Positions 3,011 to 58,787 of a DNA stretch of 64,000 bases are shown one piece after another (within the stretch, counting starts at the first letter, position 1; each line of letters opens with the position of its first letter). The stretch is from positions 13,144,001 through 13,208,000 of the forward strand of contig OZ024760.1 of NCBI GenBank assembly GCA_964016885.1. Reading direction: 5' to 3'. A model generated the notes under the pieces. It saw only the letters and a list, made by a program, of their open reading frames with translations, was not told the origin of the DNA and did not search any database. Made by a program: the position numbers and the translations under genes. The DNA is from Eledone cirrhosa. Lineage: Eukaryota.

Positions 3011-3128
3011 TACACTCATACATTTTATCTGATGTTCCAACAACTCTGATAATTTGTTGCCTCAAGATCCCGTAATCGGGTGAAAGCGGAAATATTTTCT
3101 TAAACTTTAATCCGTACTAATAATAAAA

Positions 3129-3215
<87 letters not shown>

Positions 3216-4262: not shown

Positions 4263-4306
4263 ATATATATATGTGGGTGTGTGTGAATGTATATATATAT
4301 ATATAC

Positions 4307-4500
4307 AATGATATTAAATAAATGGAAACTATATTTATAAAACCATATTTATTTTATTATATATATTTCAAGGGCAACCAAGACACCATTGGTGCGCTTT
4401 CATCAGATAAAATACAAAGTTTGTTTTATAAATAGAGACATACCCATGAAAATCATGCCTTATCGGTTGGAAATTCACTGGATAGTGGAAACATATTAGG
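4307..4500 (-). mobile_element. PLE 3' remnant, family A (tail-less arm); may extend to about 5160
   Basis: Matches 11481-11620 and 21380-21445; contains hammerhead; abuts (TA)n. Confidence 0.75.
4350..4414 (-). ncRNA. Type-I hammerhead ribozyme
   Basis: Minus strand TATTTTAT-CTGATGA-stem [22 protein letters not shown], 8-bp stem I. Confidence 0.8.
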
Positions 4501-6514: not shown

Positions 6515-6827
6515 TATATATATATATATTTGTGTGTGTGGAGAGAGAGAGAGAGAGAGGAAGTAAGAAAGAAATATAGAGGAACAATTGACCCCAGTAC
6601 TTGACTGCTACTTTTGTTTATTGACCTTGAAGAGTCACCATTTGGCTCCATCTTCAATGCTTCAACAGTCAAAGAGCTGAAGACACTGGGTCTATAACCA
6701 ACACAACATTAACATAGATAGATATACATTATCAACTCTCTGATAGGTAAAGCATATGACCACACACACACACTTACATACACATAAACACACACGCACA
6801 CACACAATGTAAATTAAATATAATTAA

Positions 6828-6858
<31 letters not shown>

Positions 6859-7803
6859 CTAACGCTCATAGCTGAATCAATGACCGAACTAGAGAAGAAA
6901 TTCCAAACGTGGAAGCACGGCCTAGAATCAAAAGGCCTTAAAATTAACCTGGCTAAGACTAAAGTTCTAGTTTGTAGGAAAGAAAATAAGGCGGCGGTCC
7001 CATCGGGGAAATGGCCATGCTCAGTGTGTAGGAAAGGCGTAGGTAGAAACTCCATTTTATGTCCCAAATGCAAAGTATGGGTGCATAAAAGATGTAGTGG
7101 GATCACAGGTAAGCTAACTAAGAACATAGATTTTACATGTGGCCGGTGCTCTGGTGCAATAAGTAGCAGCAAGTGCCCACAAAATACTAGCTCCTTCAAC
7201 TGCGCAGAGGGTTCTATAGAAATAGTGGACAGCTTCCGTTATCTGGGTGACAAAATCAGCAGTGGGGGAGGGTGCTCTGAAAGTACAGTAGCTAGAGTCA
7301 GAACTGGATGGAAAAAGTTCAGAGAGCTTATACCACTATTAGCCGCTAGAGGGTTCTCCCTAAAAATGAAAGGCAGGTTATACGATGCCTGCATACGAAC
7401 AGCAATGCTGCATGGCAGTGAGACCTGGGCATTGTGTGCAGAGGATATACGCAGACTAGAGAGGAACGAAGCTTGCATGCTCCGCTGGATGTGCAATAGT
7501 AATATACGTGAACGGCAAAGCATAAACGAACTAAGGAAAAAATTAGAAATAAGAGGGATCAGATGTTGTTTACTCGAGAGAAGGCTACGTTGGTACGGTC
7601 ACGTGATGCGCATGAAAGACGACAGCTGTATAACAAAGTGCAGGGCAATAAAGATAGACGGTAGCCACGGAGTAGGCAGACCCAGAAAAACATGGGACGA
7701 GCTGATAAATTCCGACCTCACACGCTTACACCTCTCCAAGACAATGTCACTGGACCGAGACCTTTGGCGGTACTCAGTAATAGAGAAGACCCGCCTTACC
7801 TAA
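6859..7803 (+). pseudogene. 5'-truncated RTE-clade LINE ORF (late RT domains and C-terminus) with inserted PHD-type zinc finger
   Basis: GLKINLAKTKVL, VDSFRYLGD, LYDACIRTAMLHGSETW, RRLRWYGHVMR, GRPRKTW; C4HC3 finger 7018-7149; starts directly after (TA)n just downstream of the expected YADD. Confidence 0.93.
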
Positions 7804-11355: not shown

Positions 11356-11390
<35 letters not shown>

Positions 11391-11392
<2 letters not shown>

Positions 11393-11687
11393 CAAAAGGG
11401 ATATTCAATTTGTTGGTAATCCAACAAATATAAATGTTTATAACTGATTCAGAGCACTCGACAGTTTTCTGGAGTAAATATTCAATGATATTAAATAAAT
11501 GGAAACTATATTTATAAAACCATATTTATTCTATTATATATATTTCAAGGGTACCAAAACTTTGGTACGCTATCATCAGATAAAATAGGAAGTGTGTTTT
11601 ATAAATGTTGACATAACCAAGGAAAATATAGAATAGAATAAATATGGTTTTATAAATATAGTTTCCATTTATTTAATATCATTGAAT
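11391..11687 (-). mobile_element. PLE fold-back module, family A, with hammerhead at 11527-11587
   Basis: Arms 11481-11535/11632-11686; minus-strand CTGATGA...gtaccaaa/tttggtac...GAAATATATATA; tail motif 11456-11475. Confidence 0.85.
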
Positions 11688-20569: not shown

Positions 20570-22677
<2,108 letters not shown>

Positions 22678-37311: not shown

Positions 37312-37356
37312 ACACACACACACACACACATACACACACACACATATATATATATA

Positions 37357-37447
37357 ATAAATATTTGCTCTACGGTTCTTATATATTTGATATATATTTA
37401 TCCTTATCGAGCCCTCTTTGGATTTTAGTCTTCAAATTTATTATTAT

Positions 37448-37450
<3 letters not shown>
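37357..37450 (+). mobile_element. Orphan PLE 3' tail
   Basis: Essentially identical to 55135-55228; begins 10 nt before the GCTC...TC-GAGC motif; (TA)n flanks. Confidence 0.85.
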
Positions 37451-37491
<41 letters not shown>

Positions 37492-54620: not shown

Positions 54621-54628
<8 letters not shown>

Positions 54629-55229
54629 TAAAATAACAGATTAAAGTTTAAGCAAAGAATCGCTGCTTTCACCCAATATAAGTTACACTGGGAGATCCTA
54701 GCTAGGGCTAGACCGTATAACGGAAATAAAAGACCATGTGACCTCTGCGCCGCTGAGGCCCTGGAAATACTCTACGCCACAGACCACATCTTAAAAAATC
54801 TGAGGCAATTTCGGCTTGTAAACATAAATTGCACAAAACTTTCCTGTATTACTGCCCCACGTTATACCCTAACGGATAGTACGATCTATACGTGGATATT
54901 TTACGTCTTGATGTGGGAGCTAAGTATATGTTTTGTTTATACTTTACTTATTTGCATAGTTCTTTGCCAGCGAACGTTTCCACGAACCAAAGTATCGTCT
55001 TCCTGTCTTCCTCCGGTTGCAACGTTTTTTGAAATATCCACTTCTGCGTTTACAGATTGACTTTGTTAGTTTCAGAAGATCTCGTTAAGGGTGAAAGCAG
55101 CGATTCTTTGCCTAAACTTTAATCTGTTATTTTAATAAATATTTGCTCTACGGTTCTTATATATTTGATATATATTTATCCTTATCGAGCCCTCTTTGGA
55201 TTTTAGTCTTCAAATTTATTATTATTACT
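54621..55229 (+). mobile_element. 5'-truncated PLE with inverted 5' arm and GIY-YIG C-terminal remnant
   Basis: Arms 54621-54674/55089-55143; loop encodes WEILARARPYNGNKRPCDLCAAEALEILY...(frameshift)KSEAISACKHK; tail motif 55145-55190. Confidence 0.88.
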
Positions 55230-55234
55230 ATATA

Positions 55235-55277
<43 letters not shown>

Positions 55278-56131
55278 TTTTTTCCGTTGTGTTGTAATAT
55301 AAATATTACACACAGTAGATTATCAGCTCACGTAGAGTTTGCTCGACGGTTCCAGTTGTAGTTCCAAAAGTAATCCGGAGAAAAATAGAAAGATTTGAAT
55401 GGATACAGTTTAGTTGAAAGGAATTTATTGACACGTGTTTCTATAACAGTTACATAACCTAAAACAGCTATCTACAAACTTTTAGTTATGCAGACATTCA
55501 ATATTTCAATGTTATTGTTTACTGTCATTTCATCAGAATAATATTACTGAGGACCTATTTAGTTTTTATAGAGAATATTAGGAGGAAGGGGTGAAGTTGT
55601 TAGAAGAATAGTTGAAGGAGTGGTTTTTCGATAGCAGTGAGAATTCTTGGTGGCAGTGATTAATTAGATTCCCATCTGTTGTTTTGACATTTTTTATAGA
55701 ATATATTATTGGTTATTTTTCTAAATCTATAGAAGGATTAGAGATAGTAAAGATATGCGTGGTTGGTTTTGTGTTTGCACTTAACATTCAGACTTAAATT
55801 TTTCTTTCAAGTGTACGTATTCTTTCACCCACGCATTCACACACAAATATATTTGCACACCTCTACAAAATACATATACTCACAATTCACATATTCATAC
55901 TTACATATATATACACATGCATACACATATATATACACACATGTATTCATGTACATACATACGCGCTCATGTGTGTACATTTTCATACTCAACTTATCTT
56001 TATATATACACACGTATAGACACACACATATATACATACATACTCTAGTCCATGTGTACACACATACACATACATACACATCCATATACACATACATACA
56101 TACACATATATATATACATATATACATATAC

Positions 56132-56162
<31 letters not shown>

Positions 56163-56169
56163 CACATAC

Positions 56170-56218
<49 letters not shown>

Positions 56219-56493
56219 AGCACTTTAATACATGAATACACTTACATCTAACTATACACATCAAACATATATATATATTTACTTATTTATATACATTTTC
56301 ACATATATATACATACTTATGGACGTTTTTAGACACATTCATTATCGCATATTTGTACCTATTCTCATCAGCATATCTTTTCATTATTAGTATGGTAATT
56401 TAAGGTTATTAATATATGTTGAAAAGAGATTGTTTTTATATTTTTCTAACTAGATTAAGGTTTATATAGTTGGGGGATGTCCCTCTTTTATGT

Positions 56494-57621
56494 AATATTA
56501 CACTCAATTTAAACTCTGGTTTGATTAAACCGTTTCATAAATTGAATGAAAATCTCAAATACGTAAATGTTGGGTCTAACCACCCCATCTCTATAATTAA
56601 ATCTATCCCTAAAAATATTTCCCTTAGAATCTCGGGTCTATCTTCTAACATACAAGTATTTAAGGAACACGCCGAGTACTACGATAACGCCCTTAGTAAA
56701 GCAGGCTACCTCAACAAAATAGAGTACATAGATGGGAACAATCAAAACACCCAAAATAAATCCCACATAGGTAGATATAATAACACAACACCAAACCACA
56801 CTTACTACCATAGTATGCACACCAGTAAACCAACAAACAAAACTAATAGAAAGCGATGCAAAGAGTACTTATGGTATAACCCCGAATACAATAGCTCCAT
56901 TAGTACAAATTTACCAGTACTCTTCTTTAAAATAATTAAAAGACATTTTCCCACATCACACAAATACCACAAAATCCTAAACCCTACCACTATAAGACTG
57001 TCATACTCTACAGCGTTAAACCTTGAACAACACATAAAAAAGATCAATACTAGAAGGTTAAACGAAAACACTAAGAACTTAAGTACAAAGAACCCCAAAA
57101 AAACAGTAGACAATACACTACAGAACATAAATAAACCACACCTAAGTTCGTCCGCAATACTACTCCAGAGAAAACCCAACGTACACAACTGTAACTGCAC
57201 CTATCCTGACAACTGCCCCCTCGGCAATAACTGCCTGGAAAAAAATATTATTTATAAGTGTACCATTAAATCCGGAGGCAACGAGTGGTATTACGTGGGA
57301 TCAACGGCAACATCGTTTAAATCTCGATTGTATAGGCATTCTTACTCAATAAAACACCAGAGCCAAAGAAATGTAACAACTTTAGCAGAGAAAGCTTGGA
57401 CGCTCAGGGATAGCAATCAAAAGTTTACCCTAAAATGGGAAAAATTAGCTAAAACCCAAAGCTTTTCCAGGAGCCAAAATTTCTGCAAATTGTGTAATCT
57501 TGAGATTTATTACATAATCACACACAAGAAGAAACTGCTGAATAACAGAATTGAACGAACATTATTCTGCCGTCACAGAACTAAAACCCTTTTTTCCCAC
57601 TACAAGCCGAATATTACATAA
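56494..57621 (+). pseudogene. PLE ORF fragment: RT domain 7/thumb, linker and GIY-YIG endonuclease
   Basis: ITLNL..G..KPFHK....KYVNVGSNHP, LWYNPEY, CNC-x5-CPLGNNC, NIIYKC...YYVGST..FKSRLYRH, CKLCNLE, LNNRIE...CRH; the first 8 codons of the track ORF come from the inverted arm. Confidence 0.92.
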
Positions 57622-57890
57622 AAGAGGGACATCCCCCAACTATATAAACCTTAATCTAGTTAGAAAAATATAAAAACAATCTCTTTTCAACATATATTAA
57701 TAACCTTAAATTACCATACTAATAATGAAAAGATATGCTGATGAGAATAGGTACAAATATGCGATAATGAATGTGTCTAAAAACGTCCATAAGTATGTAT
57801 ATATATGTGAAAATGTATATAAATAAGTAAATATATATATATGTTTGATGTGTATAGTTAGATGTAAGTGTATTCATGTATTAAAGTGCT

Positions 57891-57939
<49 letters not shown>

Positions 57940-57940
57940 G

Positions 57941-57985
<45 letters not shown>

Positions 57986-58572
57986 GTATATGTATATATG
58001 TATATATATATGTGTATGTATGTATGTGTATATGGATGTGTATGTATGTGTATGTGTGTACACATGGACTAGAGTATGTATGTATATATGTGTGTGTCTA
58101 TACGTGTGTATATATAAAGATAAGTTGAGTATGAAAATGTACACACATGAGCGCGTATGTATGTACATGAATACATGTGTGTATATATATGTGTATGCAT
58201 GTGTATATATATGTAAGTATGAATATGTGAATTGTGAGTATATGTATTTTGTAGAGGTGTGCAAATATATTTGTGTGTGAATGCGTGGGTGAAAGAATAC
58301 GTACACTTGAAAGAAAAATTTAAGTCTGAATGTTAAGTGCAAACACAAAACCAACCACGCATATCTTTACTATCTCTAATCCTTCTATAGATTTAGAAAA
58401 ATAACCAATAATATATTCTATAAAAAATGTCAAAACAACAGATGGGAATCTAATTAATCACTGCCACCAAGAATTCTCACTGCTATCGAAAAACCACTCC
58501 TTCAACTATTCTTCTAACAACTTCACCCCTTCCTCCTAATATTCTCTATAAAAACTAAATAGGTCCTCAGTA

Positions 58573-58623
58573 ATATTATTCTGATGAAATGACAGTAAAC
58601 AATAACATTGAAATATTGAATGT
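58573..58623 (+). ncRNA. Hammerhead-like core in the PLE 3' UTR (mirror at about 55494-55545, minus)
   Basis: tatt-CTGATGA-AATG...CATT-GAAA-tattgaatg; stems I and III weak. Confidence 0.6.
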
Positions 58624-58726
58624 CTGCATAACTAAAAGTTTGTAGATAGCTGTTTTAGGTTATGTAACTGTTATAGAAACACGTGTCAATAAATTCCTTT
58701 CAACTAAACTGTATCCATTCAAATCT

Positions 58727-58787
<61 letters not shown>

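Follow-up and report, generated by a model that had tools for sequence, protein, structure and literature searches.

Two fixed end sites and one template lineage in the two-armed insertions of a Penelope-like element family of Eledone cirrhosa

In a young family of Penelope-like elements (PLEs) in the genome of Eledone cirrhosa, the two-armed insertions end at two fixed sites and carry one of each per insertion; the two arms share one template lineage, and their lengths are independent of each other. The two ends of the target break probably prime on one template, one at each site, with subsequent end joining of the two products; the priming steps are what we infer, and the regularities of the insertions were observed directly. 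The inverted copy and the one-ended tail were known features of PLEs, and the two fixed sites, the strict pairing, the shared template lineage and the independent arm lengths are added in the current study.

Layout of the focal insertion

The window, i.e. the whole stretch of 64,000 nt that was analyzed (contig OZ024760.1, positions 13,144,001 to 13,208,000), contains in the region 55,235-58,787 an insertion consisting of two head-to-head arms embedded in one (TA)n tract. It is a single event of a young Hydra-clade PLE, and the locus is an ordinary copy, one of roughly 1500 insertions (a rough estimate from about 2800 ends). An intact tandem unit of the same genome (L031; 3595 nt, ATG at r57, ORF of 773 aa) served as the reference for all unit positions, denoted r. 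Alignment to this unit bore out the layout proposed in a previous sequence-only reading, namely a short, tailed left arm on the minus strand and a long, tail-less right arm on the plus strand.

The left arm (55270..56499, minus strand, r2367-3602) comprises the last codons of the ORF, the 3' UTR and the tail. The arm proper runs from 56499 to 55275, where the alignment places the start that had been put at 55277, and a further 5 nt (r3598-3602) are common to the arm and the end of the left (TA)n target tract (55230..55274). The right arm (56500..58732, plus strand, r1257-3487) runs proper from 56500 to 58729, followed by 3 nt (r3485-3487) that also begin the right (TA)n target tract (58730..58776). 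The 115-nt tail lies between both fixed end sites (55270..55384, minus strand, r3488-3602). As had been noted, the right arm stops just before this tail, which it lacks, and has about 1.1 kb of additional ORF (1110 nt). Its 5'-truncated ORF (56500..57621, plus strand, residues 401-773) encodes a putative RT thumb, a CxCX5C linker and a GIY-YIG-like nuclease with CxxC and CxH motifs. The arms overlap by 1123 nt and are identical there except for one 8-nt (TA)n length difference. (TA)n adjoins both outer ends of the insertion, and the flanks farther out differ, with no duplication.

The element and its clade

The unit carries a single ORF, with the RT followed by a C-terminal GIY-YIG-like nuclease, and a 1.2-kb microsatellite-rich UTR. 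Pfam gave no match for the partial or the full ORF, and the domains were therefore assigned from motifs. RWK was found at residue 37 and DKT at 121, with no DKG, and CxCX5C, CxxC and CxH at residues 631, 729 and 757, the last two around a conserved E and N; no CCHH motif was seen when the 773-aa ORF was read by eye. Among the 120 homologues listed, RWK was present in 87, DKT or DKS in 120, CxCX5C in 103, CxxC in 113 and CxH in 110.

According to section 11 of Craig et al. 2021 (PMC8557442), the Hydra clade of PLEs with a C-terminal endonuclease is marked by RWK, the change of DKG to DKT, CxCX5C, CxxC, CxH, the absence of CCHH and a (TA)n target. All of these motifs are present here, the ends of the family copies abut TA, and the ORF could be matched by eye, motif by motif, with the Hydra proteins of the supplement to that paper. 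The Hydra clade, which includes Hydra-1_Obim, also shares with this family a hammerhead-like core near the 3' end. On the published motifs, the assignment to the Hydra clade holds, in keeping with the resemblance to (TA)n-targeting Hydra-type PLEs noted in the sequence-only reading. At 3595 nt, the unit exceeds the length of "generally under 3 kb" described for the clade as a general, not a diagnostic, feature, owing to its 1.2-kb UTR. The family is apparently undescribed, and comparison by eye separates it from Hydra-1_Obim.

A motif scan placed the hammerhead-like core at unit r3336-3378, corresponding to 55494..55536 (minus strand) in the left arm and 58581..58623 (plus strand) in the right. 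It consists of CUGAUGA, a short stem II, UGAA and stem III. Stems II and III are present and stem I is degenerate, unlike in the Hydra hammerhead table of PMC8557442, with which it was compared by eye. Rfam returned no hammerhead match for the element, its sole matches being microsatellite-driven miRNA. The 5' ends of arms cluster at an AATATT word upstream of this core (r3287-3296), where they were found in 6 of 62 tail-less arms and also in L070, L155 and L157.

End sites across the genome

The tail-less end of the family is at r3487 (site 1) and the tailed end at r3602 (site 2). The 29-mer just before site 1 has 2806 matches genome-wide. Exact patterns found 1412 ends at r3487 followed by TA and 1163 ends at r3602 followed by TA, and these two sites account for nearly all ends of the family. 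A further 166 copies read through site 2 into the next ORF.

On the first 185.7 Mb of contig C1, at least 100 tail-less and at least 83 tailed ends were listed. All 48 outward-facing neighbor pairs within 10 kb on this stretch combined one tailed with one tail-less end (fraction expected 0.50, p 2e-15); three further close pairs did not face outward. An unbiased set was formed from all 67 clusters behind the first 100 of the 2806 29-mer matches. It contained 38 resolved two-armed insertions, all one-of-each, two without clear ends, and 27 single-armed loci (22 tail-less and 5 tailed, under a pattern that misses tailed singles shorter than about 150 nt), each with its end joined to TA. The rule was also obeyed by 26/26 resolved insertions in a set selected by tails, where three could not be resolved, and by 12/12 in a set selected by read-through. 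Overall, 76/76 two-armed insertions with both ends resolved were one-of-each, and five others were not resolvable. The pairing of tailed with tail-less ends is thus a strict rule in this family and not a matter of chance.

Each site opens with a short TA-like word able to pair with a nicked (TA)n end (3-5 nt of TAT/TATAT homology). A 13-nt motif then follows, in which 10/13 positions are identical between the two sites; its site-1 version matches nowhere else in the unit. In predicted folds, an AC-rich hairpin appears in the tail, and the hairpin after site 1 reaches -4.9 kcal/mol. The fold after site 2 is weak and changes with the segment folded, twin hairpins being only partly seen, and the tail region folds no better than shuffles (z -1.0).

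One template lineage for the two arms

Arm-to-arm comparison covered the 66 insertions whose usable overlap was 30 nt or longer. They differed at 45 of 32,702 nt. At polymorphic sites, the two arms of an insertion disagreed in 4/979 comparisons, as opposed to 17,290/77,110 (22.4%) between insertions, which rules out an origin of the arms from different source elements. The check for different subfamily SNPs in the two arms, proposed in the sequence-only reading, was thus negative, with agreement in 975/979 comparisons.

Variants found in at most two sampled insertions, and present in all copies within the insertion, comprised 24 inverted-only, 27 tandem-only and 11 mixed cases; a single rare variant (L143) was confined to a pair of copies in opposite arms. 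Such variants can be template-borne, since every unit of an insertion carries them, also where the units are in tandem within a single arm. Four rare variants shared by the arms were searched for genome-wide; three occurred only in the two arms of one insertion, and one at a single further locus. Variants unique to one insertion would require source copies missing from the assembly, or an RT error that was copied across. Neither the 128 loci L031-L158 nor the stretch from the window contained a copy with A-to-G hyper-editing.

The junction between the arms

The head-to-head junction at 56499|56500 (56494..56502) is blunt. Alignment with L031 puts the first base of the right arm at 56500 and that of the left at 56499, giving an overlap of 0 nt and an insert of 0 nt. 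An AATATT microhomology had been proposed here (56494-56499 with 57610-57615), which the alignment does not support; the left arm starts, at its 5' end, with this palindromic hexamer, which reads the same on both strands, and 57610-57615 is the right arm's own copy of these six bases. The hexamer and the three bases that follow it at the start of the right arm contribute to a 12-bp palindrome (56491-56502) beside the center of the junction, which may reflect end processing. A composite that moves as a whole is ruled out, because the genome contains the junction word only once. Among public reads and contigs of four runs covering the element, none bridges 56499|56500, and the strand-change joints listed there belong to the ordinary element and are uninformative either way.

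Across sister insertions 81 junctions were examined, of which five in simple repeats were left out before microhomology was counted. Fifty of the remaining 76 had no insert; microhomology of 1 nt or more was seen in 40 of these, and of 2 nt or more in 29, where 47% and 18%, respectively, would be expected. Inserted bases were present in the other 26, several templated from nearby sequence, and a few of these are probably mismatches near the junction instead. We take this pattern to resemble polymerase-theta joining.

Arm lengths and tandem units

The lengths of both arms were compared in 62 insertions, as the sequence-only reading had advised. Either arm can be the longer: 24 had a tail-less arm that reached farther 5', 31 a tailed arm that did so, and in 7 the two starts lay within 20 nt of each other (counted as equal). 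The starts were uncorrelated (rho 0.02 in the unbiased set; rho 0.15, p 0.24 over the 62 insertions). The seven equal-start insertions exceed the 1.1 expected by permutation, and some are at palindromes. In 6/38 unbiased pairs, the tailed arm is tail only and shares nothing with the opposite arm.

Arms longer than one or two units occur on either side, and the family displays the canonical PLE features of partial tandems, an inverted 5' copy and a tail at one end. Three loci (L139, L141 and L143) contain mini-units of about 320-380 nt, in which the sequence jumps back to r3412-3422 after r148-200. In L139 (G000:C3:218.052 Mb), both arms repeat a mini-unit of 321 nt (r3422-148), which bounds the cis signal; L141 has a similar one. 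The mini-units suggest an RNA end near r3415 and either a circle or template jumps. In L150/L151, two adjacent units of one arm share four variants missing from the other units, and these probably represent a later tandem duplication.

Origin of the two-armed insertions

In the model that we regard as probable, the element protein would nick a (TA)n tract on both strands, and reverse transcription would be primed by each 3' end, at r3487 for one and at r3602 for the other. The ribonucleoprotein, probably a dimer (as predicted for the anole element), would bind the tail region, and each nicked TA end would pair with the 3-5-nt TAT/TATAT word at its own site. The two reverse transcriptions would copy toward the RNA 5' end and stop independently. 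Duplication of the common region would arise if the downstream transcription displaces the first cDNA, or if it uses a second RNA from the same source. Host end joining would then link the two cDNA ends, bluntly in the focal copy and elsewhere mostly through 1-4 nt of microhomology or short inserts.

Two convergent reverse transcription events followed by end joining had already been proposed from the sequence, and this is the best-supported model and probably right in outline. One part that needs changing is the RNA 3' end as one of the starts; the tailed start is probably not the RNA 3' end, since 166 copies continue past it into the next ORF and arms can be longer than one or two units. Both starts are probably internal to the RNA, by analogy with the anole element in vitro.

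The main competing explanation, which we consider unlikely, is that one cDNA or antisense template folds back and is copied into a hairpin, which a nuclease resolves at the other fixed site with asymmetric loss of the center. Self-priming on an antisense template is proposed for the PLE layout in PMC3846280. Several observations fit such an origin: the haplotype identity of the arms, the excess of equal-start palindromes (7/62 insertions that look like fold-back), and the location of arm 5' ends near ATATT (17/152, compared with 8.7 in shifted controls, p 0.005). Insertion-private variants sit in both arms (three of the four tested were unique to one insertion), and these, like the opposite-arm-only variant of L143, count against two priming events. 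Long palindromes are also unstable, and a hairpin that had lost its center would be just as likely to leave this junction signature. The exclusion of snap-back in the sequence-only reading is thus valid for simple snap-back and fails for snap-back followed by asymmetric loss of the center, from which identical junctions result. However, fold-back needs a deletion in 55/62 insertions, including copies with identical arms. It is strained by the 6/38 tail-only arms without overlap and by the 22 lone tail-less ends, and it does not predict shared variants that run through the tandem units of one arm. Moreover, two RT start sites were observed directly in vitro (PMC11167929).

It is improbable that the two priming events used two RNA molecules of the same source locus, one per protomer. 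Strand displacement would not be needed, and haplotype identity would follow if one source dominates in the cell, but this arrangement gives no reason for one-of-each ends, and the equal-start arms and the mini-unit on both arms of L139 fit one molecule better. Two independent side-by-side insertions, or an assembly artefact, are very improbable: (TA)n tracts collect many insertions, the focal junction lacks a bridging read or contig, and assembly gaps lie near the arms at three loci, but the target sequence that would separate two insertions was looked for and is absent from the junction, the arms are head-to-head and one-of-each in 48/48 pairs, private variants are common to both arms, the flanks are not duplicated, and rotifer copies of the same layout have one target duplication around the whole structure (PMC3846280).

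We put forward tentatively, as a less secure proposal than priming from both break ends itself, that PLE integration is an obligate asymmetric twin priming. A protein dimer bound to a single RNA, which might be circular, would direct the ends of the (TA)n break to different members of a repeated pair of start motifs, and the leading cDNA would be displaced by the trailing reverse transcription. If true, the tail, the inverted copy and the arms longer than a unit would be accounted for by one mechanism.

Comparison with known systems

In L1 twin priming, two target ends prime on one RNA, giving a head-to-head inversion with short junction microhomology; the L1 start sites are poly(A) and an internal position that varies, and nothing is duplicated. 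In the present family, neither site varies, and the common region is duplicated in most insertions. The earlier exclusion of L1 twin priming as lacking duplication is consistent with 32/38 unbiased pairs that overlap and with the absence of a poly(A) end, whereas the six tail-only pairs resemble L1.

The Fig. 2 legend of PMC8557442 gives the published PLE layout, in which a 5'-truncated copy is inverted and one end bears a tail; Penelope-13_HM of the Hydra clade is listed in that paper with an inverted, 5'-truncated copy. The canonical inverted pLTR with tail, in the descriptions in PMC8557442 and PMC3846280, likewise has this copy at the 5' end and a one-ended tail; there the tail is 30-40 nt, compared with 84-115 nt in the families of the window, and is optional or often on one end, unlike the strict one-of-each rule found here. 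Nuclease resolution or self-priming is proposed in these papers.

The anole PLE studied in vitro by Frangieh et al. 2024 (PMC11167929), a Poseidon element and hence of a different clade, is described there as nicking and extending both strands, with two internal start sites bounding the tail and a predicted dimer. It shares with the focal family the two sites bounding the tail and an AC-rich stem-loop. In the anole element, however, the two sites lie inside the ORF, with no difference between strands and no target homology, whereas those of the focal family lie upstream of the ATG, one per end, with 3-5 nt of TA homology. The extension of both strands from two sites in vitro favors the model proposed here, and the lack of a strand difference and of target homology in the anole enzyme counts against it.

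In a search of titles and abstracts that covered little of the subscription literature, no strict one-of-each rule or shared template was found for PLEs. PLEs are the sister group of telomerase, and how their tandem and inverted insertions arise is called open in PMC8557442 and PMC11167929. The present family offers a strict rule, two defined start sites, a minimal cis region (the 321-nt mini-unit still inserting likewise) and intact ORFs, so that the two-primer and fold-back models should be separable in one in vitro assay.

Other elements in the window

Two further two-armed insertions belong to other PLE families. The one at 21291..22502 (second family) has, as had been recognized, the same layout as the focal insertion, with an 87-nt inverted overlap and an 84-nt tail on the short arm. 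The one at 54621..55229 (third family) has a 54-nt overlap and a tail of about 90 nt on the longer arm, also as described before, and has its TA tract in common with the focal insertion. At sister loci of these families, the ORFs are 28-46% identical to the focal ORF, save a few closer matches from neighboring copies of the focal or near families. Both families also have two fixed ends. The resolvable outward pairs were one-of-each in 11/11 and 7/7 cases, respectively, in a reading by eye of the 30 short loci per family that matched best.

The window copy of the third family lacks, at 54959|54960, a segment of about 739 nt that is present in sister copies (L201, L195, L196). The segment starts with GTAAGT like a splice donor and ends with CG, not AG, and the window copy may have arisen by mis-splicing or deletion. 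At 37355-37461, a solo tail end of this family lies in (TA)n; it is 107 nt long and identical to 55133-55239. Diverged pieces akin to the second family occur at 11380-11679 and 4298-4373, and 3075-3151 resembles the third. The ORF fragment at 6760-7803, which encodes a PHD finger and matches RT weakly, is probably from a non-LTR element.
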